From: a virus
Length of the DNA: 64,000 nucleotides
Virus record (IMG/VR): IMGVR_UViG_3300036766_000837
Coordinates: 32,001 to 96,000 of that record
Direction: 5' to 3' (one strand)
Positions within the stretch are counted from its first letter, which is position 1. Each line of letters opens with the position of its first letter. Below the pieces are notes generated by a model, which worked only from the letters and a program-made list of their open reading frames with translations, was not told the DNA's origin and did no database searches. Shown here piece by piece: positions 46,391 to 64,000 of this stretch. Both the position numbers and the translations under genes were made by a program.

Positions 46391-48175
46391 ACCGGATATT
46401 TCACCTCCCTTATCATTGGAAGCATCTTTGGTATGCAAAAGTGGAAATATTGTCCTTAACATTTCAACAATATTACCAGAACTATCCTTTTGCAACTTAA
46501 GCACCAAATCAGCCTTCTTTGCATCATTAGAAGTGTTAGGTCCTACAACCCTCCCTCCAGAGAACTTATGTCCCGAACCAAATGCCTTATTTGCGGCAGA
46601 AGCAATTTTTCTTCCTATCGCGGCCCATTGAGACATGGAATAACCACCTGCTTGTCTTTGATTGGGATGATTGAAATACACCATAGCCGCCCTTACCCTC
46701 GCCGAAGAATCTATCGGATATTTATAATTGGCAGGGTCGGCATATTGACTTCTATTTGTAGGTTTGCCCTTAGGAGGAGTCTTACTAGCATTGGTAATTG
46801 CTTTATACAAATCCTCTTCAGTCAAAGCCTCAAAAAATGCAACCTCTTCATCGTCATATATTTTTTTATATTGAACCTCATCATTAGATTTGGTGCGGCC
46901 CTTTAGGACTTCAAGTATTTTTTCGGCAGCCTCTTTGAGACCATCATAGGAATCCTTGTTACCTTCCGCTTTCATCGCACCCTGTTGCGGGCCTCCCTCT
47001 GGGAGACTAGTTTGTGTAATAAGTTCTGGGTTCGCATTTTCTATCTTAGGAGTTGGCGATACTTCTGTCATTTCAAATTGGTTTGTCTCCTTATTATATA
47101 TTTCTGTCTGATTTGTGCCACCTGTCATATCAAAATCTTCGGTAACAACATATTTATCTGGATTCTGTATCATCTCGCTGCCACTAATGTCTTCTGTATA
47201 TACATCGCCAGCCTTATTAAGTTTGAATTCGTCAACCATCTTTTTCAAATCACTCACTCCCAAAACTTCTGAAACCTCGCCAATCTTAATCATCATGGCG
47301 TCACAACTAACACATTCAATGGTAGTTGCTTCTATATTATCAGTCTTTGCAACATCACAAGGTTCACAATAAAATAAAGCACGGTTTTCAATAATCGCAT
47401 CCCCAACAGTTAATTCATCATCTTCTAACTTTAGCAAGGTAGCCCCTTTAGATATATCTTGGAATACTGTTAGGGGATTCATTGGATTATCTACAACCGA
47501 AAGTTCTGCTAAATGGTATTTAGTAATCCTCATAATATTTCTTACCGAATATTTATCGTCATTTACTGGTTTAACAATATCTGGCCTTCTTTCGAGAACC
47601 TTTCCTCCGACCGAATAACCGGAAAGGGTTCCATCTAAAACTTTCTGCCAGGTATCTTCTGCCCCTTTAGAAATTCTAGACTTTACCCATACACCGTTAT
47701 AAGAATTTCCGGATTCATCGGTATATTTCTTCTCTGAAATATCAATAGCTTTTCCAACCGCTATTGGCGCGTGCATCTCACGAATATTTCCAATCCAGGT
47801 TTTAAAAGCTTCTTGTGAGGCAGTAAAATCTACAACCTCCCCAACCTTATCAATATTGTCTAGAGTTGCAAAGCCCTCAACGGTTCTATCTTTAACGTTA
47901 ATTTTCGAGAAAGGAATCCCAAAAGCAATATTGTCACCATCAATTGCTATGGTTGCTTTCAGAACATCTTCAGTCATTTTCACCCACCTTTCTCCTTTTT
48001 TATGATATCCAGCATTTTTAACAGCAAACCAAGCAATTCTGGCCGCTGAAGAATCATCCGCCCCTCCACCCTTTGCGGAATTAAATGCCGAGGTCCATAC
48101 GCGTTTAGCGTGACCTGGAAGTTTTTTAATGCCGGGATTTCTGGCTTCCGCTTCTGCAACACTTTTATAGGGCAT
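45824..48175 (-). CDS. Prohead protease-scaffold polyprotein with N-terminal ChaB-like domain
   Basis: MPY...LP-x-HA-x3-W-x2-AFN (ChaB-like); REMH, GYSVGG, ELSVVDNP (protease); CxxC..CxxC; YADP-x-NYKYPID module; acidic tail. Confidence 0.85.
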   Translation of the reverse strand: MPYKSVAEAEARNPGIKKLPGHAKRVWTSAFNSAKGGGADDSSAARIAWFAVKNAGYHKKGERWVKMTEDVLKATIAIDGDNIAFGIPFSKINVKDRTVEGFATLDNIDKVGEVVDFTASQEAFKTWIGNIREMHAPIAVGKAIDISEKKYTDESGNSYNGVWVKSRISKGAEDTWQKVLDGTLSGYSVGGKVLERRPDIVKPVNDDKYSVRNIMRITKYHLAELSVVDNPMNPLTVFQDISKGATLLKLEDDELTVGDAIIENRALFYCEPCDVAKTDNIEATTIECVSCDAMMIKIGEVSEVLGVSDLKKMVDEFKLNKAGDVYTEDISGSEMIQNPDKYVVTEDFDMTGGTNQTEIYNKETNQFEMTEVSPTPKIENANPELITQTSLPEGGPQQGAMKAEGNKDSYDGLKEAAEKILEVLKGRTKSNDEVQYKKIYDDEEVAFFEALTEEDLYKAITNASKTPPKGKPTNRSQYADPANYKYPIDSSARVRAAMVYFNHPNQRQAGGYSMSQWAAIGRKIASAANKAFGSGHKFSGGRVVGPNTSNDAKKADLVLKLQKDSSGNIVEMLRTIFPLLHTKDASNDKGGEISGLENYEQVLEKIADIFEVAKREAEEVLKAFAGVQDLNSEDGAGKTVGSDPGEAGVGTSNANDGGATLNAVEVTVAKETALPAADVGPEKVTPDAISTDGVGADVGTNDFTPANVLPHADLGAAEQPEDLKKVIADYFDDKFSELAKRIDAIENSGGGKKSSEVNTEDLVKAETSDSIWGGAFYSDEWDK

Positions 48176-50207: not shown

Positions 50208-50260
50208 ATTTTGTCGATATGAATTATTCAACAATCTGACTAAATTTGTTCAATAAACGC

Positions 50261-50284
50261 GGAGGCCCGCCGAAGCGGGCCTCC
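50261..50284 (-). terminator. Terminator/processing hairpin downstream of the tRNAs
   Basis: GGAGGCCCGC-TTCG-GCGGGCCTCC (cUUCGg tetraloop) followed by GCGTTTATT. Confidence 0.75.
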
Positions 50285-50313
50285 ACCCAGCCGTCGAAGC
50301 GGCCAGGTCTGCG

Positions 50314-50640: not shown

Positions 50641-50865
50641 TTATTCCCCGTGAAATTCCATATAGTCTTCTTTGGTTGGCCATACTCCAGATTCCAAGCC
50701 AAGATTTTTTTCTATAGAAGAATTTTCTATAAAAATAAATAGTCCGTGATAATTTACAGGACATTTATTATGTGCGCCCCATGCTTCGGAATATGGACCG
50801 GCCGTAGACGGTATTTCTATCCCCCATCTTCTACAAAATGAAACTGACTTTAATTCTTGAGTCAT
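50641..50865 (-). CDS. Hypothetical protein
   Basis: ATGA-coupled to the GT2 gene. Confidence 0.5.
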   Translation of the reverse strand: MTQELKSVSFCRRWGIEIPSTAGPYSEAWGAHNKCPVNYHGLFIFIENSSIEKNLGLESGVWPTKEDYMEFHGE

Positions 50866-51533
50866 ACCAACCCCCCATATCTTTTAAGGGCATCAAGATA
50901 ATCATTTGGAGGTTCCCCATTCCAAGGAATCAAAAATATCTCTTGTTTGGGAGGGCCTCCCCACTTAACTGCATATCTTTCTCTATTTAAAGCAAAATAT
51001 CTTTGATGTTTTAATTTGACATCTCCCGGAAGCCTCTTAAGGGTTTCACTTCCCAGATGTTGAAGATTGGCGGGGATATAACCAACTTTATCTTTGTTTT
51101 TTATATCCATTCTATATGCGAAATCATTATCTTCAAAATAGGCTGGATAAAACCCTTCATCAAAAAAACCTACATCTGAAAAAACAATGGGATTAACCAC
51201 AAATGTATCCCATCCAGAACAATTTACCCCTTGTGCGCCACAAAACCATAAATCTTCTTCCACAACTTTATTTATTATTGTTTGCAAACAATCTTCCCCA
51301 ATAATCGTATCATCAGCAGAATAGACTATATAATTACAGTTCTCATTGATAGCTCTCTTAAATCCCTTATTGAGAGTAGTAGCAAGCGACACCTCAAAAT
51401 TGAAATTGGGAACAATATAGAATTCCTTGGGATATGGATAAGTTCTTACGATACTATCAAGATGATTAGGCATCAAATCCCAGTTTCCCACCGTTAAGGT
51501 TACAATCCCGACCTTTATCGAACTAAAATCCAT
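50862..51533 (-). CDS. Glycosyltransferase family 2
   Basis: N-x-G, SADD, VGFFDE-x-FYPAYFEDND, H-x-GS, KWGG. Confidence 0.85.
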   Translation of the reverse strand: MDFSSIKVGIVTLTVGNWDLMPNHLDSIVRTYPYPKEFYIVPNFNFEVSLATTLNKGFKRAINENCNYIVYSADDTIIGEDCLQTIINKVVEEDLWFCGAQGVNCSGWDTFVVNPIVFSDVGFFDEGFYPAYFEDNDFAYRMDIKNKDKVGYIPANLQHLGSETLKRLPGDVKLKHQRYFALNRERYAVKWGGPPKQEIFLIPWNGEPPNDYLDALKRYGGLV

Positions 51534-52647
51534 ATAATCCTCCATCAAAATTATACTTGGCAATCCATTGCTTCACAAGTTGTATTATCAATTCAATATC
51601 TTCATCTCTGAGCCACCAACCAACGGGTATACACACCATAGTTTCGAACCACTTGTCCAAATATGGCAATTTGGCTCTATATTCACTGAAACAAGAAAAT
51701 CTGTCATTCCTATTATGGGTTTGAGATACTCCCACCCCATTTTGCTTCATAAATTTCTCAAATTTTATCGGGTGAGGAACATGTATGGTATATAACCAGA
51801 AGGATGATTCTCTATCCTTGGGCCATTCAGGGAGAAGTTTCATCTGAACAAGTTCATCATATTTCGCGGCATTTTCTCTATGAGATTTAACAATATTCGT
51901 TGAGGCGTAGTGGATATTTGCAAGTCCTATCGTTGCATTGATATCATTCATATGAAACTTGAAACCTACCTCTGGAATATCTTGCCGACACCGCATAGCA
52001 TCACCGCTAGTTCTATCCAATCCATACCATCTCAAGAGTTTTGCTCTTTCATATTGCTCGGCAGGAGTAATAAGCAACCCTCCATCTCCAGTAGTTAGAT
52101 TCTTAATTGCTTGGAATGAATAACAAATATAATTTCCTCCGCCCACCGATAGGGGTTGACCTTTGTATGTAGCCATAAATGCATGGGCAGCATCTTCGAT
52201 TATTGGAATCCCATTGGCAACTTCTCTCAGGGTAGAATAGTCACAAGGTAATCCTCCCCAATCTACCACCATAATCGCCTTTATCTGATTTCTACCCCAA
52301 CGGTTAATAGCCCATTTTAACGATTCAGGAGACATATTCCCATACTTATCTACATCTGTCCAAACTATATCTGCCCCTCTTGCGGCAATAACTTCGTTCG
52401 TTGCTGAACAGGTCATCGGTGTCGAAATAATATAATCTCCTGGACCAACACCGATGAGATGGAGGGCAAGATATAAAGCCGAAGTTCCTGAATTTACGGT
52501 AACCCCATATTCAAATTGCAAACATTCCTTCAATTTTGATTCGAACTCATCTACCTTCGGCCCTTGACCGATATATCCAGATTCTAAAACTTCGCCAACC
52601 ATATATCTTGCCAATGGATTCATATAAACCTGGAATTGTGAGATCAT
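51523..52647 (-). CDS. DegT/DnrJ/EryC1/StrS PLP-dependent sugar aminotransferase
   Basis: GP-x-V-x2-FE, NSGTSAL, EDAAHA, SFQAIKNLTTGDGG. Confidence 0.92.
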   Translation of the reverse strand: MISQFQVYMNPLARYMVGEVLESGYIGQGPKVDEFESKLKECLQFEYGVTVNSGTSALYLALHLIGVGPGDYIISTPMTCSATNEVIAARGADIVWTDVDKYGNMSPESLKWAINRWGRNQIKAIMVVDWGGLPCDYSTLREVANGIPIIEDAAHAFMATYKGQPLSVGGGNYICYSFQAIKNLTTGDGGLLITPAEQYERAKLLRWYGLDRTSGDAMRCRQDIPEVGFKFHMNDINATIGLANIHYASTNIVKSHRENAAKYDELVQMKLLPEWPKDRESSFWLYTIHVPHPIKFEKFMKQNGVGVSQTHNRNDRFSCFSEYRAKLPYLDKWFETMVCIPVGWWLRDEDIELIIQLVKQWIAKYNFDGGLYGF

Positions 52648-52649
52648 TT

Positions 52650-53432
52650 TTACTCCATCCAGCCAGTCACATCTGATATTTTTAAATCTTCTGGAGGACA
52701 ACCATATATCGCATCTTCGCTCATCGCATCTCCTGAAAGTCTACCCATCTTCACGCTCAAAGCCTTCCTATGTTCTCGTCTATATACCGCAGGAGTCTTG
52801 AGATACCCATAACTCATATGGAGACCCGCCAAGTTATAAATATATTCTATATCCCAGGAATGGGCCTGGTCAACTGGTCTTGGAATCCATCGTAAACCTT
52901 CATCATGAATACAATTAGTCCTATGAACGAAACATCCTAGATTCCACCAATAAATATCATCTGCCTTAAGTTTTGTCACATCATAATTTCCCTTGAATCC
53001 CACCTTCCCCTCTGTGAAAGGATTTTGACCATCATAGAAATACATCGGCTCCCCGACAACAACATGATAGCTTGAAGAATTCTCAATAAATCTATTTGCG
53101 GCCCCTAAGAATTCCGGGGCAAGAATATCATCATCACAAAGATATACTATCAACTCATTATTTGGAATCTCTAAAATAACAACATTAGTGTTTTCTACAA
53201 ATCTTTGGTCGTTTGGGTCTATCCTTTGTTCTAGAGATATCTGAGGCGCCTTGCATAGTATCAATTTATCATTATCATATTCTTTGGATAATTCTAACAC
53301 ATCAAAATCCGAACCATCATCTAATACCCAAACTACAACATCTTGATGAGTTTGATTTACGATAGCACTATCTATAGCCTCACGAAGCATTCTTGGCCGA
53401 TTATAGGAAAAAAGACAAACATTCACGCGCAT
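52650..53432 (-). CDS. Glycosyltransferase family 2
   Basis: SYNRP, LDDGS, YLCDDD, HSWD, YRREH. Confidence 0.85.
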   Translation of the reverse strand: MRVNVCLFSYNRPRMLREAIDSAIVNQTHQDVVVWVLDDGSDFDVLELSKEYDNDKLILCKAPQISLEQRIDPNDQRFVENTNVVILEIPNNELIVYLCDDDILAPEFLGAANRFIENSSSYHVVVGEPMYFYDGQNPFTEGKVGFKGNYDVTKLKADDIYWWNLGCFVHRTNCIHDEGLRWIPRPVDQAHSWDIEYIYNLAGLHMSYGYLKTPAVYRREHRKALSVKMGRLSGDAMSEDAIYGCPPEDLKISDVTGWME

Positions 53433-54274
53433 GATTCCATCACTCCAAGAATCTCCTCAGATATAGGGGGCGGAATATAACCGGGCTTATATCTACCATA
53501 TTTATCTTTTCTTCCCAAAAGAGAACTTAATGATTTCTCATGTTCCCTTCTATACACCACCGGAGATTCTAAAACCAAAAATTGGGGATGCATATTCATC
53601 ATATCATTTATAAATCTGATATCTTGGCTATGCCCAAAATTATTACTTTGCCACCTTATATCTTCATCTTTGAAACACAATACTTTATGCGCAAATGTTC
53701 CCGTTCCCCAATATAAAGCTTTATCGGAAAAGTCTCCTGGCATCCCAAATATAGATTCGGTATATGGGTCTTGATTATCATTAAATGTAAATGCTTGGCC
53801 CACAGCCACATGCATCTTTGGAGTAGAATCTAGGGCTTTTGCCGCCCGACTTACCCAATTAACACCTAATATATCATCATCACAAAGATAATTAACTATA
53901 TCTTCTTTCGAAAGAGTTTCTATAACAGCATTTATATTATCTGATAACCTATTATTTTTAACTCGTTCAGTATTATCCATCTTAGGATGTTGATAATATA
54001 CAACATCAAAATCATGTTCTTTTAATATCTCATTATAGAAATAGTCTGAAGAAAAATCCGATCCATCATCTATGATATGCAAAATCAGAGTTTGGTCATT
54101 CTGTTTCTTTACACTATCTACCGCATCTTTAAGCATTCTTGGACGGTTATAACTAAGGAGAAGAACATGCGATTTGGAAATAGCAAGGCTACTACTGTCA
54201 TTAAGGGTTTGTTTATACCTTCCGATGGCAATTTCTCTTTGCTGTTCAAATTGAGGATCGGTTAATTCTGCCAT
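53423..54274 (-). CDS. Glycosyltransferase family 2 (tandem paralog)
   Basis: SYNRP, IDDGS, YLCDDD, HSQD, YRREH. Confidence 0.85.
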   Translation of the reverse strand: MAELTDPQFEQQREIAIGRYKQTLNDSSSLAISKSHVLLLSYNRPRMLKDAVDSVKKQNDQTLILHIIDDGSDFSSDYFYNEILKEHDFDVVYYQHPKMDNTERVKNNRLSDNINAVIETLSKEDIVNYLCDDDILGVNWVSRAAKALDSTPKMHVAVGQAFTFNDNQDPYTESIFGMPGDFSDKALYWGTGTFAHKVLCFKDEDIRWQSNNFGHSQDIRFINDMMNMHPQFLVLESPVVYRREHEKSLSSLLGRKDKYGRYKPGYIPPPISEEILGVMESCA

Positions 54275-54823
54275 TTAAGTCCCTTTATCAACCAATCCCA
54301 TTAATAGATAATCTAGATATTTCCCATCACGATATAGATGCTCAACCATCTTTCCTTCATATTTCATTCCGGCTTTTTCATATACCTTCCTTGCCTTTTC
54401 ATTAAGTTCTGCCACCAATAACCATATTCTGTGTAAACCCAAAACATTAAATGAATAATCAACTAATAAGGAAAAGGCTTCTACGGCATGTCCTTTCCCG
54501 CGAAAAGGTTCAAATGTGTCTACCCCTACACAAGCATTCCTATTTATCCAATCTATTTCATTTATTCTTGCAATACCAACATCTAACCATCCAACATCTT
54601 CTGGTTTTCGCGGAACATTATCCTTAGTCCTATATTGTGTAATAAAATACATATTATTATTACCAACTGTTTTAAACCATTCATCTTGATTAGATGGCCA
54701 AACAGGAAAGACTGAAGTTAGATAATGCCATGTCGTCGGATTGTTACGGTGCGCGGCCAATAAACGCAAATCTGTTTCTTCTACTACCCTGAAGGCATAG
54801 TTTTTCTTTTTGTATACTTGCAC
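54275..54823 (-). CDS. GNAT N-acetyltransferase (RimJ/RimL/PseH-like)
   Basis: RGKGHA, F-x2-LGLHRI-x-L-x-V-x3-N-x2-A-x3-YEK-x-G-x3-EG. Confidence 0.85.
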   Translation of the reverse strand: MQVYKKKNYAFRVVEETDLRLLAAHRNNPTTWHYLTSVFPVWPSNQDEWFKTVGNNNMYFITQYRTKDNVPRKPEDVGWLDVGIARINEIDWINRNACVGVDTFEPFRGKGHAVEAFSLLVDYSFNVLGLHRIWLLVAELNEKARKVYEKAGMKYEGKMVEHLYRDGKYLDYLLMGLVDKGT

Positions 54824-54837
54824 CTGTTCCCCTTTCT

Positions 54838-56598
54838 TTAAGTATACCCCAAGGTGGCATCCTTTTCCATCGAATCACAACCGCCACCTATTGAGCAAGA
54901 AAGATTCTCATATTCTTTAATATCCAGGATTGTATTATCTAATAATCTTCCAGATTCATCTCTTTTTTCATTATCTCTTTTCTCATAATAAACGGCATCT
55001 CTAGAAGAATCAACATAAGTAGTTAATCCTTTACATCCAAGTCTCCATGCCTCTAAATATGCCTCTTTAAGTTCGGACTCTGCTACTCCTGCCGGAGCAT
55101 TATTAGTCTTTGAAATAGATTGTCCCACCATGTTCTCATCCATAGCATTTTGCCATACTGATTGCATCTTAATATGTGCCGAAAATGGAACCTCATAAGT
55201 GGTGATGAAAGAAGTATTATCCGCCAACCGATGCTTCCATGTTGAGGCCCCTATCCCATTAGAAGTTCGTACTATCTCTCGCCCAAAATTAGGTTCTATA
55301 GATGCACTCGTATTAGATATCAAAGAACGTGTTCCTTCCGGCGCAATAGCAAGAAGACTTATATTTCTCAATTTCAAATCCATCTGTTTATGTTGAGATT
55401 TATCCCATAGGGGATATGTACCCTTTCTTTCAGCAATCCTACATGATTCATCTACTACAATTTTATTCATGAAAGACCCTATATTTCTGGCAATCTCATA
55501 TGAAGATTCTTGGCCATAGATGGAACCCATCATTACTAATATGTCGGCAAACCCTGTAATACCCAACCCAATCCTTCGAGTATCTTTACTAGCCTTCTCA
55601 AATTCTGGGGCAACATGAACATTGGCATCTATAACATTGTCTAAAAATCTTATCCCTATTCTTATAGTCCTTTCAAGTTTTTTCCAATCGATATCCCTAT
55701 TAGATATATGATTGACAAGATTTATTGACCCTAAACAACAATTTTCATAATTTAGCAAAGTTGTTTCGCCGCATGGATTAACTCCCTTAATCTCATATTC
55801 GGGATACAAAGGATTATTTCTATTAATCGCATCTCTCCAAACCATACCCGGTTCTGCCATAAGATAATTGTTTCTAATTATCAAATCAAACATCTCTCTA
55901 GCATCTACCGTATCAACGGTACGTCTACCTACACGAGAGACTAAATTCCAAGAAGAACCATCCTCAACGGCTCGCATAAATCTATCGGAAGTGAAGACAG
56001 ATATATTAAAATTGGGCAGAGAATTTTCTTGACTCTTCAGTGTAATAAATTTTCTAAGTTCGGGATGGTCATCATCAAGAAGGCCCATCATCGCCGCTCT
56101 TCGGCGCCCCCCCTGTTTAACAACCTCTCCTATAGAATTGAAGATATTTGTCATGAATGAAACAGCTCCCGAAGAAAGTCTCATCGATGATTTAACATTC
56201 TCCACTTCAGACCTTAGATTAGAAAAATTATAACCTACCCCAGCTCCTGCTTGAAATAACTTTGCTGAATGCCATGCGTGTTGCATGATTGAATCCAAAG
56301 AATCTTCTGGTATCTGAACAAAACAAGCCGATAAAAGCCTCAGCCCTCCCCTTGACCCGGCATTCATTAAGGTCGGGCTATTAGGCAAAAAGTCTAATTC
56401 ATATATTGCATTAAAAAATTCTTCTTCATAAGCATCTGGAGAGAATCCATATTTAGTCTCTTGAGACGCTATTGTTTTTGCAACCCTCCTCGAAAGCCCT
56501 TCCCAATCTTCTAAAAAATTGCCATTTTCATCTCGATCATAATATCTACTTTTAAGCACCTCTTCTGCAAGAGGGGTAAGCTTGGGCAAAAGAATCAC
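54838..56598 (-). CDS. nrdJ: Class II (AdoCbl-dependent) ribonucleotide reductase
   Basis: NSPTLMNAG, SAC, QGGRRRAA, NPCGE, CCLGS, ISKT, GCKG, C-terminal Cys pair; no beta subunit nearby. Confidence 0.88.
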   Translation of the reverse strand: MILLPKLTPLAEEVLKSRYYDRDENGNFLEDWEGLSRRVAKTIASQETKYGFSPDAYEEEFFNAIYELDFLPNSPTLMNAGSRGGLRLLSACFVQIPEDSLDSIMQHAWHSAKLFQAGAGVGYNFSNLRSEVENVKSSMRLSSGAVSFMTNIFNSIGEVVKQGGRRRAAMMGLLDDDHPELRKFITLKSQENSLPNFNISVFTSDRFMRAVEDGSSWNLVSRVGRRTVDTVDAREMFDLIIRNNYLMAEPGMVWRDAINRNNPLYPEYEIKGVNPCGETTLLNYENCCLGSINLVNHISNRDIDWKKLERTIRIGIRFLDNVIDANVHVAPEFEKASKDTRRIGLGITGFADILVMMGSIYGQESSYEIARNIGSFMNKIVVDESCRIAERKGTYPLWDKSQHKQMDLKLRNISLLAIAPEGTRSLISNTSASIEPNFGREIVRTSNGIGASTWKHRLADNTSFITTYEVPFSAHIKMQSVWQNAMDENMVGQSISKTNNAPAGVAESELKEAYLEAWRLGCKGLTTYVDSSRDAVYYEKRDNEKRDESGRLLDNTILDIKEYENLSCSIGGGCDSMEKDATLGYT

Positions 56599-56644
56599 CT
56601 CCAGATGATATTTCTATTCTAGTAATTTTAGTTTATTTCGCTAT

Positions 56645-58714
56645 TTACTTGACTTTAAAAAACCTCTTGGGGATACGGCCTTCTAGATCGTCAATCTCTT
56701 TGGATATAATTTTTTTCCAATCAAACTTTTTCCGAATAAGTTTGGCGTTACTATATGCTTGTTTAGATACTTCATCATAATTTTCATATACATAAACCAT
56801 CTTGTCACAAAGGTCATTGAAATCTGGCCGAGCCCAGTTTCCTAAATGAAAATCATGACTACTTGGCCCTTCAGTATATTTAAGTTTGATACCATATTCC
56901 GCAAATTCGGACATACCAGAATAATCGGGCAATATGGTTGGCATTCCTGTAGCCATGGCTTGTAAAGGAATCATGCCGAACCCTTCACCAGAATTTCCAG
57001 TAATAAAAACTTTGCCATTTCGTTCTGCAATAATTGTATGATTTTTGTTTGTAACACACCAAACCATACCAGAATATTCTGTATATGTTATATCATAAGC
57101 TTTAATACTTCCTGCGATTTTTGTTTTTTTAACCGAAATTTGATAGTTCAATTGGGTATTGTCCTTAGAAACAAACCTTCCTTCTATAAGCCTATTAATT
57201 GGTTCCCTTTTAAATACTGAATTTGTGTATCCCAATTTAACACATAATTCAATAAAATCATCACAGAGTTGTTCAGAAGAGGTATAATAAGACACATTAT
57301 GACCACTAAAGGTTCCATCACCCGCCATTAATCCATTAAACAAATGTTCAAGCAATCTAGGAGAAAATTCAAAACACCATCTTGGTATTTTTTTATTTAA
57401 AGCTCCCTTCCCGCAAGATTTAAAAATTTCAAGTAAAGACTTAGAAACCACTCGGACATCAAATTTTTGAATGAAGGGATTAAGTTCAAAATATTTAAGT
57501 AGTTTAAAGATATGTTCCAAATTTTCCCTATTTCTGTTTGAAATGCTTATATATGAATTTCCCTCCTCATCATCAAAATAACATCCTTCGGATATATACC
57601 ACCCTAGAAGTTCAAAGAATAATGGAAGATAAATCTTTTCTGGCAATTTCTTTGCCCTATGCCATAAATTCGTTTGGTCATATATTTCATTAGTGGTTAT
57701 GTAATCATCATCCCTTCCTTCCCACTTGCAAGTTAATGGAATATACCTCTTAGTTTTATTTTTCTGAACAAAATCTCCAGCATATTTTACCTGTAAATTC
57801 TCATAATTACGTGGGTTGATCGTTCCCCCCTGAGATGGCCAATAATATACTCTATGGTTTGGAGTTAATAACATATCCATTGATGCATTATCAAAATGAA
57901 TCATCTGTCCGTTATACATAGTTTGATTTATATCAATAATAGGACAAAATTCCATCTTTCCGCTTGAATTAATCGTCGCCACGTTTTGACCAATAAATAC
58001 CTCTGATCTATTTTTCCATCCATTTTCTGTAAGAATCCTTGTATCATCAGAAAAACAAGAAGGATAAACTAAACAATGCAAACTATGAAACATGGCGTTC
58101 ATTTCAGGAATACTCAAGATACTTCTATAAGCTTCCACCTGAGGATGGTCTGTAACCGGACCGATTATAGAGGTTCCCTGTTTCATTCTACATTCCAACC
58201 ATCCATTGGCTTTATAAAACAAACGAACATTGTTATTACCGGAAAATACCTTATTAAATGCATCGAAAACCATCTGGCCATTTTTCCTATCAGCGGGTTC
58301 CCCCATGTGAAAAAAAATAAGATAATCAGAAATTATTCTTTTTGATAAGGTATAGTCTTTTGGGTCTATTCCATGAATAACTGTTCGGATAGGAATCTTA
58401 ACCCCGGCAGCTTTAAACACTTTAGTACACCAATGAGAAGTAGTCCAAAATAAATTACGAGAATTGATACGGTCAATCCATTCATCAGGAACATAGGTGG
58501 ATTCCCAAGGAGTATATCCAATCTTGAATTGATGGTCTTCACCCCCATAGTCTGGGGGTTGTTTGAATGATAGAGAAATAGGGGCTGTCTCGTCTTCCCA
58601 ATATGTTTTAATGCCCATAGAATTAAGAGTTTTACATATCTTAAATCCGGCATAACCGTAACCATCGTTCAATCCACTTGCAGCATTACCCCAAATTCCG
58701 ATTTTTTCTATCAA
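56645..58714 (-). CDS. Glycosyltransferase family 4 (group 1) with intein
   Basis: GYG, WES, HGID, RKN, VYPS|SGEGFGMIPLQAMATGMP. Confidence 0.88.
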   Translation of the reverse strand: MIEKIGIWGNAASGLNDGYGYAGFKICKTLNSMGIKTYWEDETAPISLSFKQPPDYGGEDHQFKIGYTPWESTYVPDEWIDRINSRNLFWTTSHWCTKVFKAAGVKIPIRTVIHGIDPKDYTLSKRIISDYLIFFHMGEPADRKNGQMVFDAFNKVFSGNNNVRLFYKANGWLECRMKQGTSIIGPVTDHPQVEAYRSILSIPEMNAMFHSLHCLVYPSCFSDDTRILTENGWKNRSEVFIGQNVATINSSGKMEFCPIIDINQTMYNGQMIHFDNASMDMLLTPNHRVYYWPSQGGTINPRNYENLQVKYAGDFVQKNKTKRYIPLTCKWEGRDDDYITTNEIYDQTNLWHRAKKLPEKIYLPLFFELLGWYISEGCYFDDEEGNSYISISNRNRENLEHIFKLLKYFELNPFIQKFDVRVVSKSLLEIFKSCGKGALNKKIPRWCFEFSPRLLEHLFNGLMAGDGTFSGHNVSYYTSSEQLCDDFIELCVKLGYTNSVFKREPINRLIEGRFVSKDNTQLNYQISVKKTKIAGSIKAYDITYTEYSGMVWCVTNKNHTIIAERNGKVFITGNSGEGFGMIPLQAMATGMPTILPDYSGMSEFAEYGIKLKYTEGPSSHDFHLGNWARPDFNDLCDKMVYVYENYDEVSKQAYSNAKLIRKKFDWKKIISKEIDDLEGRIPKRFFKVK
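56993..58057 (-). mobile_element. Intein with intact-looking LAGLIDADG endonuclease (355 aa)
   Basis: CFSDDTRILTENGW, TPNH, LGWYISEG, GLMAGDG, VWCV, FITGN|S. Confidence 0.9.
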
Positions 58715-59490
58715 GAAGATTCCTTTTTGATATTTTCCAAGAAATCTTCTATATTTTTCTCAAAATTTGCCATAAAAGTATCTATATCTTGTTCTTCTAT
58801 TTTCTCTCCGCGCGCAAAGGAGAATGGAAATGCTTTACATCCTACCCTATCGAATAGATATGCATTTACCCAAGTGATATTAACTGTATATTTTGTTCCA
58901 CAATTTTCACACTCAACGATAGCAAAAGGATTCGTTAATCCTTTGGGATAATGGACCTCAAATTTATTAATATCCGTAATAGGAACAAGTTTATTGCAGT
59001 TAGGACAAGGAGAATTTCCTATAGTTCTTTTTTCATTCATATTTTTTGTTATTTCCTTCACTTCCTCGTTAGAATCTAATAGTTGTTTTTCTAAAAAATC
59101 CTCACTAAACTTCATTTTTAACTCATCTACTGCCTTTCTAAGATGAGAATGTTCACCAGACTTTCCAAGTTGATATGATTCTGTTTTTTCATTACAAAAA
59201 TTATTTATATGACCTAAATCGTTGTTTATTATTCTTAATACTCCTGTCCCACAGTAAAAATTGGTTAACTCTTGCAAAGTATTATAATTCCCTGGATCGC
59301 TCATGTCAAACCCGGCATAGGCAAGTAACATTAACAAATTATATTCTGATATATCCCCTCCGATAGCGATTCCATAGGCTAAGACGGATAAGATTTTATC
59401 TTCTTGATCGGAAGAATCTTTTATTTTGTCTAAATTATCTTTTAAATACCTAAAAGCATAGAATTCTATGGACATTTCTTTTCTAATCAT
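58711..59490 (-). CDS. Hypothetical protein with C-terminal Zn ribbon
   Basis: CPNC...CENC; first gene after the leftward promoter. Confidence 0.65.
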   Translation of the reverse strand: MIRKEMSIEFYAFRYLKDNLDKIKDSSDQEDKILSVLAYGIAIGGDISEYNLLMLLAYAGFDMSDPGNYNTLQELTNFYCGTGVLRIINNDLGHINNFCNEKTESYQLGKSGEHSHLRKAVDELKMKFSEDFLEKQLLDSNEEVKEITKNMNEKRTIGNSPCPNCNKLVPITDINKFEVHYPKGLTNPFAIVECENCGTKYTVNITWVNAYLFDRVGCKAFPFSFARGEKIEEQDIDTFMANFEKNIEDFLENIKKESS

Positions 59491-59636
59491 ATCATATAAG
59501 ACACATAGATTTATAAATTTTGGACTGATAATCCTATATATTAAAACAAAACCATTAACTTTGGCCCTATAGTCCTATCTTTTAGTTTCTTAGTCTTATA
59601 TAGAGAGTCACATCTTTTTTCTTGCCGCCCTACGCG

Positions 59637-59666
59637 ATTATACATCTTTTTTGAGGGTTTTGTCAA
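59637..59666 (-). promoter_or_regulatory. Consensus sigma70 leftward promoter
   Basis: TTGACA-N18-TATAAT. Confidence 0.75.
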
Positions 59667-59700
59667 ATCGGCAGAAAATGTTTAAAACTTTTTCTTTACA

Positions 59701-59723
59701 TGATATACTATCATGGAAAGGAG
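59701..59723 (+). promoter_or_regulatory. Rightward extended -10 and SD
   Basis: TGATATACT, then AAAGGAG before GTG 59729. Confidence 0.55.
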
Positions 59724-59728
59724 AACGG

Positions 59729-60346
59729 GTGTCCGGTTCGTATACAAATGAAATCGAGTTAGTTAATATTACTTCAGACGCCGAATTTTTGATTGAGGAT
59801 ATAATTTGGTTTCAAAATGTTTTTTCTGACCAATGCGATCATTCAATCGAATGTGCTAGAGAGAAAATCCGATTAGAAATCGCAAACTCACGCCTTGATT
59901 GTCTCAAACATGCTTCCGCGACGTTTAGGATATCATGTTCTTTGTCCTGTCGAGAGTTATTATCACCTAATATTATAAATCTTTCATCAGAAAATGAAGA
60001 AAAACTTAAATATGAAAAGGAAACCTTCATTTATCCCGAAATTTTAGGCAGAGAAGATATACAAGGTAAATATCTATTTGAAGAACACATGAAAATCTGT
60101 TTTGAAGTGTATCAAAAGATGATGGAATATGGTTGGAATGAGGCAAATGCAGGGTTCGTTCTTCCAAGAGCGTGGAAGGTTCAAGTTTTTGCGACGATGA
60201 ACTTCCTTGAATGGAGAAAATTTATCGAAAAATGGTCGAAAAAGCCGATGGAGGCTGAAATTCGACAGATTTCAGATGAAATTTTTAAGACTTTATTCGA
60301 AAAAGCACCATCTTGCTTCGAAATTTTAATGAAGAGGCCAACTTAA
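59729..60346 (+). CDS. ThyX-fold protein lacking catalytic motifs
   Basis: L-x-HASATF, FVLP, TMNF-x-EW-x2-FI, EIR all match ThyX; RHR-x7-S is absent. Confidence 0.7.
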   Translation: MSGSYTNEIELVNITSDAEFLIEDIIWFQNVFSDQCDHSIECAREKIRLEIANSRLDCLKHASATFRISCSLSCRELLSPNIINLSSENEEKLKYEKETFIYPEILGREDIQGKYLFEEHMKICFEVYQKMMEYGWNEANAGFVLPRAWKVQVFATMNFLEWRKFIEKWSKKPMEAEIRQISDEIFKTLFEKAPSCFEILMKRPT

Positions 60347-60355
60347 GGAGGGAAA

Positions 60356-60643
60356 ATGGCGGAGATTAGTGATTTCGGCAATCTAGCCGGACTAAAATTG
60401 AAAAAGGTATCAAAACAAAAAGAGCAAACGGCCAAAAATGTAATATTATTAGGAATAATAGCACTTTTATTTAAATTTGTTGTTTTTTTAGGGACTTGGG
60501 TTGTTTATAACCATGTAATGCCAATTTTTAACTTTCCCCATCTTAATTTTTGGGAATTTTTAGGTACAATTTATATTATTTTCTATACTGGAGGAGTTTT
60601 TCTACACAAAGGGTATCGTTTCAATAATAATATTGCAAAATAA
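60356..60643 (+). CDS. Two-TM membrane protein
   Basis: Two hydrophobic helices; AAGGAGG SD. Confidence 0.65.
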   Translation: MAEISDFGNLAGLKLKKVSKQKEQTAKNVILLGIIALLFKFVVFLGTWVVYNHVMPIFNFPHLNFWEFLGTIYIIFYTGGVFLHKGYRFNNNIAK

Positions 60644-60687
60644 TTTCTATATTCTTATTATGAAAATAGAAGTAAATATTAAATATA

Positions 60688-61083
60688 GTGAGGGGTTGCA
60701 TGATTGAAATAGGGTCAATATTAACAGGAAATATCAAAGATATTATAGTAGCATGTATAACCGGAACAGCATTACTTGGTGCCAGTTATATTGCGGCAAA
60801 AAAGGGAGCTACTAAGGGGTCTTCAAAAGGAAGTAAGGAATTGGGTGATCGGTTAGAGACTGGAAATGGAGACACCCTTGGAACAACTATTCATCATATA
60901 GAGCAAACACAAGAATTGATGGTTACACAACTTCATTCTAATTCTCGTGATCTAACAAAACTTCATGATAAGATTGATAGTACATGTAGTAAACTTGATA
61001 ACCACTTAATTGAAACCAAACCCCTATTAAAATTTGTAACCAAACAAATGGAATCTAAAGTATCAAAAAGAAAGGATAGATAA
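60688..61083 (+). CDS. Single-TM plus coiled-coil protein, possible lysis accessory
   Basis: N-terminal TM segment, heptads; coupled to the peptidase gene. Confidence 0.5.
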   Translation: MRGCMIEIGSILTGNIKDIIVACITGTALLGASYIAAKKGATKGSSKGSKELGDRLETGNGDTLGTTIHHIEQTQELMVTQLHSNSRDLTKLHDKIDSTCSKLDNHLIETKPLLKFVTKQMESKVSKRKDR

Positions 61084-61745
61084 TGAGGAAGTATAGAATA
61101 AAATTAAGCAATAGAGATTCATGGTCTAAGACATTAGATTTGAAACCCTTGATGGAGAGATGGACTTCTCTTGCCACAAATATGGGGGGTCCATATCGCC
61201 TTCGTCAACGAGACGTTAAAGATGCCGAATGGTCTCCTGCTAGAGCATTAAGTCCGACAAAGAAAAGATTGAATGCCCATATGATTCATGGAACCATCGG
61301 GGAGATATGGCTTACTGATACGGTAAAAACTCCTAATATCTCTACTATGATTGTAGATGTAAAACCTGATATTCCAGATTCTCCAGGAACTAAAGCTATA
61401 GATATTGTGAGATGGCAATTGTTCCATAATTTTAATTTGGAATCTTGGGGTATATGTGTTTGTAAAGATATTGCGGGGTCTTCTTCATATAGCCAACATG
61501 CCTATTGTAATGCTGAAGACTATCATGCAATATTTACAATAATGAGCAATGCCGCACATTGGTTGGCCACTAATGCAGCGAAAGATATCGTGAATTTTCC
61601 TGCCGCAGAAATTATATTCAATCGGCAGATTTGGACTCCATCGCAAGGATGGCATTATTATGGCGGAATAAATCCACATACCGATCATATCCATGTTTCA
61701 GGTTATCCTTTGCAATCTGGGTCCAATCTGGAGGCTTGCCACTAA
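61083..61745 (+). CDS. Putative endolysin, M15-like Zn peptidase
   Basis: SQHAYCNAED (SxHxxxxAxD)...DHIHVS. Confidence 0.65.
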   Translation: MRKYRIKLSNRDSWSKTLDLKPLMERWTSLATNMGGPYRLRQRDVKDAEWSPARALSPTKKRLNAHMIHGTIGEIWLTDTVKTPNISTMIVDVKPDIPDSPGTKAIDIVRWQLFHNFNLESWGICVCKDIAGSSSYSQHAYCNAEDYHAIFTIMSNAAHWLATNAAKDIVNFPAAEIIFNRQIWTPSQGWHYYGGINPHTDHIHVSGYPLQSGSNLEACH

Positions 61746-61746
61746 T

Positions 61747-61775
61747 TTGACAAACATATTCTGGCCGAAGATAAT
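61747..61775 (+). promoter_or_regulatory. Sigma70-like promoter
   Basis: TTGACA-N17-GATAAT. Confidence 0.65.
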
Positions 61776-61838
61776 GGGAGAGAAAGTTTAACAGATTAGG
61801 GACAAAAATTCATTTTGGCCAAAATGGAGGTGAATTAA

Positions 61839-62090
61839 TTGGCAAATGTAATAGCTGATAATGCAAAGTTTGGAGAGATGTTGGTATGGGCAAATATAGC
61901 GGCCGATACTCCTATAGTCTATGCATATATATGCCCAGTAGGAACCCATCCCGTGGTTTCTGCGGTAAGACTTCAATATTATGATGCAGATTATGATGGG
62001 GCTGTTGATGATGCTACTGAGGGTGTCGCGATTTGCCCATCCCACTCCGCAACATTAACATCAGAAACGGCAGTTGATGTAAGTCCCTAG
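61839..62090 (+). CDS. Small acidic protein with DxDxDG motif
   Basis: GGAGGTGA SD plus TTG; DADYDG; C-P-x3-H / C-P-x-H. Confidence 0.65.
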   Translation: MANVIADNAKFGEMLVWANIAADTPIVYAYICPVGTHPVVSAVRLQYYDADYDGAVDDATEGVAICPSHSATLTSETAVDVSP

Positions 62091-62110
62091 TTAATATAAA
62101 ATATCTGTCG

Positions 62111-62145
62111 AAGAGGGGGGAAGTCACCAAAATTTCCCCCTTTTT
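62111..62145 (+). terminator. Intrinsic terminator
   Basis: GGGGGAA...TTCCCCC followed by TTTTT. Confidence 0.6.
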
Positions 62146-62156
62146 GATATAATCAT

Positions 62157-62230
62157 GGAGATGCAAGCTCTGAGGCTGAGCGTCCGGTTGTGGTCCGGAA
62201 GGTCGGTGGGTTCAAATCCCCCGCATCTCC
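62157..62230 (+). tRNA. tRNA-His(GTG)
   Basis: 8-bp GGAGATGC/GCATCTCC (G-1:C73), GCTC/GAGC D stem, TCCGG-TTGTGGT-CCGGA, TTCAAAT T loop. Confidence 0.8.
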
Positions 62231-62256
62231 CGACCTATATAGAATAGGAGGAAGTT

Positions 62257-62481
62257 ATGTTTTGTTGCGTATGTGCTGGAAGTTGTTGCCATACAGGACC
62301 ACATTCATATTGTTGGAAACATAGTCAGAATTTATTGGAAAGAATTTGGCCGCCCATTCCTCAAGTTTATTGTAATCATTGTTATTGTATTGATGTCCCC
62401 CCTACATTTAATAGACCCCGATTGCATACTAGGTGTTGCAAATGTTGGAACATACAGTTAAAACATGGAATATTGAAGTGA
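62257..62481 (+). CDS. Small Cys/His-rich protein
   Basis: AGGAGG SD; 12 Cys in 74 aa; GTGA overlap with the next gene. Confidence 0.6.
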   Translation: MFCCVCAGSCCHTGPHSYCWKHSQNLLERIWPPIPQVYCNHCYCIDVPPTFNRPRLHTRCCKCWNIQLKHGILK

Positions 62482-63368
62482 AAATTCTTCTTATTGGTGG
62501 TTGCGGATACATAGGTTCTAAATTATATGAAGAATTAATTAATAATTCGTATGACGTAGATACCGTAGATATTGAGTGGTTTGGAAATTATGTCAATAAG
62601 AATAATCAAAAAATCTTATATAGTGAATTACGGGAAAGCACTCTTCGGAATTATCAGATTATAATCTTGACTGCTGCTTATTCTAGTGTTGCTATGTGTG
62701 AGATTAATCCCCTGGCTTCTGTTGTAAGTAATGTTAACAATTTCATACAATTGTTGGACAAAATAAGTAATGGCCGAAAATTTATATATATGAGTAGTTC
62801 AAGTGTATATAATGGAAGATTTTTTGCATCGGAGGAGACTCCTATAAATGAGGCCACAAACTATTACGACCTTACTAAATTTTTTGCGGACTTATGGGCA
62901 AAGATTTCCGACAAAGAGTTTTATGGACTTCGACTTGGGACGGTAAACGGATTTTCTCCGAATCTTCGCTCCGATATCATGATAAACAAGATGGTTTTAT
63001 CCGCAAAAGATTCTGGTAAAATTGAGGTATATAATCCATATAATGCGCGACCAATTCTTGGCATTAACGATCTTTGCCGCGCAATTATTGCTATAATAGA
63101 AGGGGATGACCGTCGAGGCATTTATAATCTTTCCAGTTTTGACGATATGATAGGAAATATTGCAGAAGATGTTGCTAAAATACTTAACATACCGATTTAT
63201 GATATGGGGGAAAATAAGGCATATGATTTCAGTATCAGAACGGTAAAGTTTCAAAAAACATACGATTTCATTTTTAATGACACTATCGAATCAATCGTTG
63301 AGTCTTTAAATGGGGGATTGGAGAATGGGACCATCAAAAACATACAAGGCAGGCCAATATCTGTATGA
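62478..63368 (+). CDS. NAD-dependent NDP-sugar epimerase/dehydratase (extended SDR)
   Basis: GGCGYIGS, SSSSVY, YDLTK, LRLGTV-x-G-x-SP. Confidence 0.9.
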   Translation: MKILLIGGCGYIGSKLYEELINNSYDVDTVDIEWFGNYVNKNNQKILYSELRESTLRNYQIIILTAAYSSVAMCEINPLASVVSNVNNFIQLLDKISNGRKFIYMSSSSVYNGRFFASEETPINEATNYYDLTKFFADLWAKISDKEFYGLRLGTVNGFSPNLRSDIMINKMVLSAKDSGKIEVYNPYNARPILGINDLCRAIIAIIEGDDRRGIYNLSSFDDMIGNIAEDVAKILNIPIYDMGENKAYDFSIRTVKFQKTYDFIFNDTIESIVESLNGGLENGTIKNIQGRPISV

Positions 63369-64000
63369 ACAAATAGATAGATGCCGATGTTGTGGTAAGG
63401 CGTGGTTGACCCAATATCTTGATTTGGGATATCAACCATTGGCGAATGAATATTCCAAAACAGACTCTATCATCGAAAAAAGATTTCCACTTAAAGTAAA
63501 TTTATGCGAGAATTGTTTCCATTCTCAATTATCTATTGTAGTTAATCCAGATTTAATATTTAAAGAATATCTATATGTAAGTGGGACAACATGGACTTTA
63601 CATAATCATTTTAAACTTTTGGCTGAAGATGCGATGAGGCGTGTAGGACAAAACCATCCGATGGTTCTTGATATAGCCTGTAATGATGGAACCCTTCTGC
63701 AAAAATTTAAGGCTTTTGGGGCTGAGGTTTATGGTGTTGATCCGGCAAAGAATCTTCGCAAAATAACTACAGAGAAAAATCTTAACGTGATAGTGGATTA
63801 TTGGAACTCTGAAACAGCTAAGAGGCTAAGTAAAAGATTTGATATCATAACAGCTACTAATGTTTTTGCCCATGTTGATAATATACAAGAATTTCTAATA
63901 ACATGTATGGGATATCTCAATCCGGATGGTATTATCATTTTGGAGTTTCCATACTGCAATGAATTAATTGTCAACAATGAGTTCGACACGATATATCATG
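63325..64000 (+). CDS. NDP-sugar C-methyltransferase (Zn-binding, class I SAM), truncated by window end
   Basis: Not in the ORF track. Manual translation: CRCCG...LDLGYQPLANEY...CENCFHSQL...YLYVSG...VLDIACNDGTLL...GVDPA...TNVFAH...EFDTIYH. Confidence 0.88.
   Translation, partial: MGPSKTYKAGQYLYEQIDRCRCCGKAWLTQYLDLGYQPLANEYSKTDSIIEKRFPLKVNLCENCFHSQLSIVVNPDLIFKEYLYVSGTTWTLHNHFKLLAEDAMRRVGQNHPMVLDIACNDGTLLQKFKAFGAEVYGVDPAKNLRKITTEKNLNVIVDYWNSETAKRLSKRFDIITATNVFAHVDNIQEFLITCMGYLNPDGIIILEFPYCNELIVNNEFDTIYH

Follow-up and report, generated by a model that had tools for sequence, protein, structure and literature searches.

A predicted sugar-tailoring and glycan-assembly system in a Gilson-related phage contig combines a core glycosyltransferase with two mobile viral cassettes

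Introduction

Phage glycosylation has previously been met in three forms: simple DNA glucosylation, serotype conversion, and, recently, hexose chains on actinophage virions. Virion O-glycosylation of the Che8/Corndog type was reportedly described in actinobacteriophages by Freeman et al. in 2023. Among the giant viruses, Mimivirus has viosamine and bacillosamine pathways for its fibrils and PBCV-1 has glycosyltransferases (GTs) for its capsid; we know of no description of C-methylation or pyruvylation of giant-virus glycans. In Gram-positive bacteria, serine-rich-repeat (SRR) adhesins are O-glycosylated in the cytoplasm by the GT4 enzymes GtfA/B and by GT2/GT8 extenders. Here, we analyzed a locus of sugar-tailoring enzymes and GTs in a 64,000-nucleotide stretch of viral DNA (the window), which comprises bases 32001 to 96000 of a single 114,931-bp IMG/VR viral contig (IMGVR_UViG_3300036766_000837). 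An earlier note on the window had read this locus as a phage-encoded system that makes rare sugars and builds them into a glycan on virion proteins or DNA.

The contig is linear, with a CheckV completeness of 85% and a GC content of 40.6%. Coordinates are given in window numbering; genes beyond the end of the window are given in the numbering of locus L002, in which positions 2158-2231 correspond to 62158-62231 of the window.

Results

Enzymes of the two arms

The locus reads as a system for sugar tailoring and glycan assembly in which a GT4 enzyme from the core of the phage lineage is combined with two mobile viral cassettes. The left-arm genes, and the first two sugar genes of the right arm, were located by Pfam, PHROG, and NCBIfam profile searches. 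On the minus strand, the order in the left arm is p259, GT4, the large subunit of ribonucleotide reductase (RNR), GNAT, GT2b, GT2a, DegT, and a 233-amino-acid (aa) GT. The candidate glycan genes among these are as follows.

56645..58714, minus strand: GT4-type (GT-B) glycosyltransferase with exteins of 334 aa (PHROG glycosyltransferase, E 3e-40)
54275..54823, minus strand: GNAT N-acetyltransferase (Acetyltransf_3, E 3e-16)
53423..54274, minus strand: GT2b, SpsA-like GT-A glycosyltransferase (Pfam Glycos_transf_2)
52650..53432, minus strand: GT2a, paralog of GT2b (36% identity, E 2e-51)
51523..52701, minus strand: DegT-family pyridoxal phosphate (PLP) sugar aminotransferase (Pfam, E 8e-67; the true start codon is possibly downstream)
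50862..51563, minus strand: 233-aa putative GT-A glycosyltransferase (PHROG 29879 "galactosyl transferase," E 9e-18)

The GT4, the GNAT, the two paralogous GT2 enzymes, and the DegT of the earlier note were thus all recovered where it had placed them, and the overlaps or gaps of 0 to 59 nt between the genes are compatible with the translational coupling that it had proposed. Its "third GT2" is the 233-aa protein, which matched the PHROG galactosyl transferase family but no Pfam family and no PDB sequence. All the genes that it had named for this arm stand, but it had overlooked the RNR gene between GT4 and GNAT, as well as an intein within GT4.

The DegT protein scored 226 bits against PF01041 (cut-off, 19.8), covered positions 10 to 359 of the 360 in the profile, and carries a PLP-lysine motif of the SFxxxK type (SFQAIK, residues 195 to 200). 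It scored under the cut-off of all NCBIfam equivalogs. Its nearest PDB relatives were 4xau, 4zwv, and CalS13 (E 1e-76 to 2e-59), of which the first two are deposited only as putative aminotransferases and the third is a TDP-4-keto-6-deoxyglucose 4-aminotransferase. DegT is probably a 4-aminotransferase as well. The GNAT protein resembled PseH over its full length and SpeG only over the C-terminal half, the acetyl-CoA core. Because GNAT genes adjoin GT2-DegT or DegT in unrelated viral contigs (L091, L110, and L108), amino-sugar N-acetylation is its probable activity.

The AlphaFold2 (AF2) model of GT2b (pLDDT 82) had SpsA as its top structural match in the PDB. The GT2b family is rare, with 38 proteins in 5.8 billion clusters and no tblastn match in 50,697 deposited phage records, and the GT2a/GT2b pair recurs on the same contigs (L086 and L087, for example). 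In the same 50,697 records, DegT was found in 27 and the C-methyltransferase of the right arm in 8, mostly huge or aquatic phages. The GT4 protein is 37 to 40% identical to gp22 and gp23 of Streptomyces phage Gilson. Its score against Pfam Glycos_transf_1 was 22.1 bits (gathering score, 26.4), the domain being split by the intein. In its EX7E-type motif, the first Glu is present (EGFG) and the second position is Gln (E-x7-Q), as in Gilson.

The right arm, on the plus strand, consists of a ThyX-like gene, three small genes, a tRNA-His gene, a short-chain dehydrogenase/reductase (SDR), a C-methyltransferase (C-MT), two GT-A enzymes, and a pyruvyl transferase. Its sugar genes are as follows.

62433..63368, plus strand: extended SDR (Pfam Epimerase, E 3e-19; GxxGxxG and YxxxK)
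63310..64584, plus strand, running beyond the window end at 64000: predicted NDP-hexose 3-C-methyltransferase, 424 aa (Pfam Methyltransf_13, _23, and _14)
L002 4585-5322 (off-window), plus strand: p245, GT2-fold, 245 aa (Atlas features and model GT2-like, score 0.98, TM about 0.7)
L002 5310-6110 (off-window), plus strand: Glyco_tranf_2_4-like GT (GT2_4), 266 aa (AF2 model from 19 homologs, pLDDT 86, GT-A fold)
L002 6107-6982 (off-window), plus strand: PS_pyruv_trans pyruvyl transferase (Pfam, E 8e-16)

The SDR has SSS (SSSSVY) where 4,6-dehydratases have TDE (STDEVY), and it scored 37.6 bits against the RmlB equivalog, whose cut-off is 365. Because of this replacement and a score so far under the cut-off, it does not appear to be a dehydratase and is probably an NDP-4-ketohexose reductase or epimerase; of the earlier label "SDR epimerase/dehydratase," the SDR part therefore holds but the dehydratase part does not. 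The sugar C-methyltransferase that had been named beside it was borne out. It starts at 63310, leaves the window, and has the three-part architecture of TcaB9 and MtmC, with all parts above their cut-offs (PF08421, 60 bits; PF13489, 60 bits; PF08484, 125 bits). Two CxxC pairs lie 41 residues apart, and the zinc Cys4 motif and the S-adenosylmethionine domain are conserved. Its PDB relatives were MtmC (E 3e-61), TcaB9 (E 2e-55), and 5t6b (E 4e-53), each over about 380 to 400 residues, 5t6b being the third solved sugar 3-C-methyl transferase. Since neither a 2,3- nor a 3-dehydratase was present in the contig, the C-MT substrate is probably a 2-hydroxylated 6-deoxyhexose and not a 2,6-dideoxy sugar.

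The top structural matches of GT2_4 were the peptide S-glycosyltransferases ThuS (Z 15.0) and SunS (Z 14.0), with the next family at 13.2; its best viral structural match was a Klosneuvirus GT2 (27% identity, TM 0.73). With p245 and GT2_4 added to GT4, GT2a, GT2b, and the 233-aa GT, the predicted GTs of the system come to six and not four. Five of the six are acidic (pI 4.8 to 5.4). The pyruvyl transferase scored 59.3 bits against PF04230 (gathering score, 25.3) and 56 bits against the CsaB equivalog (cut-off, 213), so it does not appear to be a CsaB ortholog. The 50,697 phage records gave no tblastn match for it, and neither a close relative in IMG/VR nor a PDB sequence match was found.

The cassettes in other viruses

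The C-MT search returned at least 297 IMG/VR stretches at about 40 to 46% identity, and the gene context was read in 80 loci (L103-L182). An SDR homolog was located directly upstream of C-MT in 58 cases among these loci; a GT2_4 homolog was present in 36 of them and DegT in 12. When a GT2b alignment was used as the query, seven viral loci (L088-L094) showed DegT immediately after GT2, at 46 to 49% identity to the DegT of this phage; L091 has the order GNAT-GT2-DegT, and the GNAT-GT2-DegT cassette was found in several unrelated viral contigs. A good example of the two cassettes together is L110, where GNAT, DegT, SDR, a p245-like gene, C-MT, and GT2_4 form one operon of overlapping genes, with UvsX and DnaB-like genes alongside. 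Two further loci, L114 and L108, resemble it. Because L110 carries GNAT-DegT-SDR-GT-CMT-GT as a single operon, the two arms read as one pathway, as the earlier note had supposed of their enzymes.

The surroundings of the cassettes varied. In L086, DNA methylase, Ku, and RNA ligase genes adjoin the cassette, and in L091, the gene of an Ig-like virion protein does. Recurrent near SDR-CMT in the 80 loci were S-adenosylhomocysteine hydrolase (20), a SleB-type cell-wall hydrolase (26), and a 528-aa nucleotidyltransferase-domain protein (15); a GT10 fucosyltransferase, porins, and an outer membrane protein (OMP) beta-barrel protein were also seen near such cassettes. A literature search found no paper on phage-borne sugar C-methyltransferases and none that links Stanwilliamsviridae to glycosylation or DNA modification.

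Proposed pathway

The earlier note had proposed that the phage makes its own unusual sugars and that nucleotidyltransferase or epimerase genes might be found downstream. The first proposal stands as far as the NDP-sugar tailoring enzymes and several soluble GTs are concerned, but not for the initial steps, as there is no dehydratase and no nucleotidyltransferase. The rest of the contig holds two GTs and a pyruvyl transferase instead, and a search of all 114,931 bp (85% complete) found no NTP_transferase, NTP_transf_3, RmlC-type epimerase, or second SDR. Since the contig lacks a nucleotidyltransferase and a 4,6-dehydratase, the feedstock is likely to be the NDP-4-keto-6-deoxyhexose of the host, a compound that is an intermediate of dTDP-rhamnose synthesis. 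The phage would draw on this pool and divide it into two products, DegT and GNAT leading to a 4-acetamido-4,6-dideoxyhexose and C-MT and SDR to a 3-C-methyl-6-deoxyhexose. The GTs would then build a hetero-oligosaccharide in the cytoplasm, and the pyruvyl transferase, as the last enzyme, would add a pyruvate ketal cap. The substrates and products given here for the tailoring enzymes are inferred from their families and relatives.

A hydropathy scan of all contig open reading frames of at least 90 aa found no polytopic membrane protein, the only exceptions with several spans being the tape measure and a repeat protein. No initiating phosphoglycosyl transferase, flippase or other transporter, polymerase, or ligase was seen in the scan, in agreement with the earlier statement that no flippase, polymerase, or lipid-carrier enzyme is visible. 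Because no polytopic membrane protein is encoded, a cytoplasmic, soluble acceptor is favored.

Phage lineage and host

The head and tail genes of the contig, the tape measure included, are homologous to those of Gilson (Stanwilliamsviridae), with identities of 55% for the major capsid protein, 46% for the portal, and 41% for the tail tube. A WhiB-family gene is also present; among 14 control genomes, this family matched Corynebacterium only. On account of the WhiB gene and the match of the structural genes to Gilson, the host is most likely an actinobacterium, probably one of low GC content.

A single-sequence portal search of IMG/VR found no close relatives, and relatives were retrieved with an alignment that included the Gilson portal. 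Gilson has two GT4 paralogs and RNR upstream of its portal gene, and GT4 was found upstream of the portal in 13 of the 34 relatives having at least 7 kb of upstream sequence. In the complete 101-kb relative at locus L011, GT4, a GT2, and a homolog of the 233-aa GT precede RNR and the portal, so that RNR lies between the GTs and the portal there as in Gilson. GT4 reads as a core gene of the lineage. The chemistry around it differed: none of the 80 portal-based IMG/VR relatives had DegT, GT2a/b, GNAT, SDR, C-MT, or pyruvyl transferase within 10 kb of the portal, and in five relatives (four of them complete), DegT, a C-methyltransferase domain, and the 1737-aa fiber described below were absent from the whole records. 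The GT locus is a conserved site with variable GT content, since Gilson, L011, and the other relatives compared differ in their GT sets, and the extended chemistry and the giant fiber are both special to this phage among the genomes examined.

No large terminase subunit was recognized in the window. Because the contig is 85% complete, the packaging genes may sit in its missing part. Gilson gp26, a 564-aa hypothetical protein encoded upstream of the Gilson portal, has no homolog in the contig.

Transcription signals

Promoters were called as consensus matches only. The signals were as follows.

59637..59666, minus strand: perfect sigma-70-type promoter, TTGACA-18-TATAAT (12/12), at the head of the left arm
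59281..59309, minus strand: perfect promoter, TTGACA-17-TATAAT (12/12), within the p259 reading frame
61747..61775, plus strand: sigma-70-type promoter (11/12), preceding tRNA-His and the SDR cassette
50259..50286, minus strand: strong intrinsic terminator with a 12-bp stem (10 GC pairs), separating the left arm from the portal operon

The two 12/12 sites, about 330 nt apart, are the only ones in the 114,931-bp contig. These signals suggest that the sugar genes form strong units driven by the host polymerase, apart from the late head operon. The earlier note had placed the left arm just upstream of the head genes; as the left arm has its own promoters and ends in a terminator before the portal operon, an argument for a virion role from this position is weakened.

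The GT4 intein and the neighboring genes

The features that accompany the sugar genes are as follows.

56993..58057, minus strand: intein with a LAGLIDADG homing endonuclease, 355 aa, within GT4 (Pfam LAGLIDADG_3, E 4e-9)
54838..56598, minus strand: RNR (Pfam, E 3e-95), part of the left-arm operon and not a sugar gene
58711..59490, minus strand: p259, acidic, with a CxxC...CxxC zinc-ribbon-like element, overlapping the GT4 start by 4 nt
59651..60346, plus strand: ThyX-like protein, first gene of the right arm (Pfam Thy1, E 2e-20; RHR signature lacking)
60356..61745, plus strand: three small genes of 95, 131, and 220 aa, with one predicted membrane span in each of the first two
62158..62231, plus strand: tRNA-His (GTG), by ARAGORN

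The 355-aa insert in GT4 answers the description of an intein by its termini, TxxH block, LAGLIDADG domain, and absence from orthologs. It separates VYPS from SGEGFG, immediately ahead of the EX7E-type catalytic motif, and has an N-terminal Cys, TPNH as the TxxH block, and a C-terminal GN followed by Ser, the penultimate residue being Gly and not His. In 14 relatives, the flanks of the site are contiguous and carry no intein. The nearest inteins were found at the same site of an unrelated GT4 on an 84-kb contig (P0043), which has a full EX7E, and in the SDR epimerase/dehydratase proteins P0044 and P0045. More distantly similar inteins occur in RNR, portal, DNA polymerase, and DNA methylase genes.

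The p259 protein matched no Pfam, PHROG, or NCBIfam family, its Atlas model was poor (pLDDT 0.45), and it is not homologous to Gilson gp22. The idea of a split terminase was rejected for p259, the GpA_ATPase match having only an E value of 0.008. Thymidylate synthase activity of the ThyX-like protein is doubtful, judging from its sequence; the annotated ThyX of Gilson (L001 1828-2529, minus strand) also has no RHR at the aligned position. The three small genes may possibly form a holin/endolysin lysis cassette. By reading, the 220-aa protein shows an H-x6-D...H-x-H pattern, and no family match (Pfam, PHROG) to back a lysis role was obtained for the three.

Discussion

Virion proteins as the proposed acceptor

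Of the possible acceptors, virion proteins were ranked first, the host envelope next, and DNA lower. Our preferred reading, held tentatively and at a rough probability of 0.4, is that Ser/Thr residues of virion proteins carry the glycan and that a glycan coat would thus be formed, comparable to that of glycosylated actinophages and of Mimivirus fibrils. Two candidate acceptors may be proposed from their composition.

36563-41776, minus strand: repeat fiber, 1737 aa, in which a 14-aa Ile/Ser/Thr unit recurs about 90 times at the protein level
43764-44318, head module: 184-aa protein rich in Thr, Ala, and Gly (27% Ser+Thr)

The fiber gene lies between homologs of Gilson gp32 and gp33, together with five small genes lacking in Gilson. 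No DNA tandem repeat was detected in it, the 14-aa period being visible in the protein only. Beside the 184-aa protein in the head module is a 164-aa free-standing LAGLIDADG-type endonuclease (43200-43694, minus strand; motif LFDGEGSF). The head maturation protease reading frame (45824-48175, minus strand) is 783 aa long compared to 444 in Gilson; it has an additional segment at the N terminus, and its C-terminal part is long, acidic, and rich in Gly.

Actinophage virions are reported to be glycosylated (Freeman 2023, cited by PMC13313380 and PMC12619734), and the host of this phage is probably an actinobacterium. In the present locus, the structural matches of GT2_4 point the same way, the best being peptide S-glycosyltransferases and the best viral one the Klosneuvirus GT2. 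A virion acceptor is also favored by the co-variation of the fiber with the amino-sugar and C-methyl genes, all absent from the five relatives, by the Ig-like virion protein gene next to the cassette in L091, and by the Ser/Thr-rich proteins of the head module.

Several points weigh against a virion acceptor. First, the left arm is a separate unit with its own promoters and terminator, and RNR lies inside it; because of the strong sigma-70 promoters and this RNR, its expression appears to be early rather than late. Second, the lead of ThuS and SunS over polysaccharide GTs was only 1 to 2 Z units, and the GT-A fold matches did not separate protein, wall-polymer, and small-molecule acceptors with confidence. 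Third, compared to their Gilson counterparts, the major capsid and tail tube proteins are not extended at the C terminus by a Ser/Thr-rich segment. Fourth, characterized pyruvyl transferases act on cell-surface glycans, and the neighbors of the C-methyl cassette in other viruses include porin, cell-wall hydrolase, and replication genes. Finally, the contig is just 85% complete, and only one protein in 5.8 billion clusters (P0041, 1214 aa, Pfam DUF4082), encoded on a 6-kb contig, is homologous to the N-terminal 380 aa of the fiber. Of the co-occurrence of fiber and cluster that the earlier note had proposed to check, the genomes show only co-variation: both are absent together from the five relatives, and the sole fiber homolog has too little sequence around it for such a comparison.

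Alternative acceptors

Remodeling of the host envelope comes next and is rather unlikely. The enzymes would act at the inner face of the membrane on lipid-linked intermediates of a host wall or surface glycan, using the flippase and ligase of the host, and an early change of receptor or surface would bring superinfection exclusion or easier release. GT2, GT4, DegT, and PS_pyruv_trans/CsaB-like families are typical of surface polysaccharide loci, the structural neighbors of the GTs include TarP, TarS, RmlT, SpsA, and WrtF, and other viral contigs have porin, OMP, and cell-wall hydrolase genes in the vicinity of the C-methyl cassette. Early expression, as such a role would have it, is suggested by the strong sigma-70 promoters, and the right cassette comes after the putative lysis cassette. 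However, the hydropathy scan revealed no initiating phosphoglycosyl transferase, flippase, polymerase, or polytopic membrane protein in the contig, and to assemble a six-GT glycan on carriers of the host in the course of a single lytic cycle would seem expensive. This phage looks lytic and has replication genes of its own, whereas surface conversion is found mostly in temperate phages.

Hypermodification of DNA is improbable. In this case, GT4 and the other GTs would glycosylate a modified base for restriction evasion, and the tailoring enzymes would diversify the glycan. In its favor, RNR is part of the same operon as the GTs, the ThyX-like gene that lacks RHR is transcribed divergently from them, related cassettes are found beside UvsX/DnaB (L110) or DNA methylase/Ku/RNA ligase (L086), and the GT content of the locus varies widely among relatives. 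Di- and trisaccharides are known to be built on DNA by GT-A and GT-B enzymes of phages (bioRxiv 10.1101/2023.12.21.572611; PMC13326640). However, no ThyA homolog (PF00303) and no C5-cytosine methyltransferase (PF00145) was found in the contig in searches with working controls; a search for Tet/JBP (PF12851) was also blank, with its own control silent and the contig 85% complete. The acidity of five of the six GTs speaks against a DNA acceptor as well. We know of no DNA glycan that nears such complexity, nor, to our knowledge, do ThyX-type enzymes make hydroxylated bases. A variant free of ThyA and Tet, in which the ThyX-like protein would make a hydroxylated or hydroxymethylated pyrimidine, GT4 would start a heteroglycan on it, and the GT-A enzymes would extend this with acetamido, C-methyl, and pyruvylated sugars, is more improbable still. 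If true, no known DNA modification would come close to it in complexity.

Another soluble acceptor, that is, a small molecule or a host protein, has about the same low standing as DNA; it would be glycosylated or acetylated, and the product could be, for example, a neutralized antiphage metabolite of the actinobacterial host or a takeover glycoside. The closest solved relatives of DegT (CalS13, 4xau, and 4zwv) and of C-MT (MtmC and TcaB9) would fit this, all five being presumably sugar enzymes of actinomycete natural-product pathways. Moreover, the GNAT sequence is closest to polyamine acetyltransferases over its C-terminal half, and the structural neighbors include AvpGT, whose structure was determined with Ara-A bound. 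However, with six GTs and a pyruvyl transferase, the product looks more like an oligosaccharide than a simple glycoside. Phages whose hosts are unrelated and probably Gram-negative have these cassettes too, and no genes for forming an aglycone were seen.

Finally, a chimeric assembly or captured host DNA without a phage role is very improbable: although the contig is metagenomic, linear, and 85% complete and the cassette GC (0.36) is slightly under the genome mean (0.41), the GT4-RNR-portal order is common to Gilson and the IMG/VR relatives, the strand skew is unbroken across the region, the genes are densely packed with phage-type promoters, and many other viral contigs carry these cassettes next to phage replication genes, so that synteny, GC, and skew all fit the phage origin that the earlier note had presumed.

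Few systems seen in tailed phages of ordinary size would be as elaborate as this one, with its six transferases and its amino-sugar, C-branched-sugar, and pyruvyl chemistry, and the cassettes would make up a widespread, uncharacterized viral glycan module. If virion proteins are the target, many environmental phages may carry bacterial-like rare-sugar coats, which would matter for adsorption, immune recognition, and particle stability; a target in DNA or the host wall would mean a new antidefense or takeover route. In either case, the cassettes supply compact soluble enzymes that are candidates for making C-branched and 4-acetamido sugars.

Comparison with known systems

Actinophage virion glycosylation and the present system share soluble GTs of the phage's own and no export machinery, and in both, structural proteins would receive the glycan in the cytoplasm. 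They differ in that the phage studied here adds an aminotransferase, an N-acetylase, a 3-C-methyltransferase, a reductase, and a pyruvyl transferase, and that its capsid and tail tube have no C-terminal extension of the acceptor type. As in the giant viruses, both rare-sugar synthesis (a 4-aminotransferase and an N-acetyltransferase) and GT-A transferases appear to be virus encoded; unlike them, this is a bacterial virus of 115 kb that seems to leave activation and 4,6-dehydration to the host.

The nearest solved relatives of the tailoring enzymes belong to the dTDP-sugar branches of actinomycetes (CalS13-type 4-aminotransferases, best E 1e-76; MtmC, TcaB9, and 5t6b, best E 3e-61), whereas here the genes are in a phage genome with six GTs and not in a polyketide cluster. 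Phage DNA hypermodification (the T4 alpha/beta-GTs, 5-hydroxymethylcytosine glycans, and arabinosyl-5-hydroxycytosine) likewise has several GT-A and GT-B enzymes near nucleotide-metabolism genes, in some cases together with enzymes of sugar-nucleotide synthesis, but an enzyme for the acceptor hydroxyl (a ThyA homolog, or a C5-methyltransferase with 5mYOX) was not found in the contig, the Tet/JBP control being silent. Finally, as in the SRR adhesin system, a very large repeat protein rich in Ser and Thr, here the 1737-aa fiber, would be O-glycosylated step by step in the cytoplasm by a soluble GT4 and by GT-A enzymes. The likeness to the GtfA/GtfB system is one of logic, and the repeat of the fiber is a 14-aa Ile/Ser/Thr unit and not an SRR.

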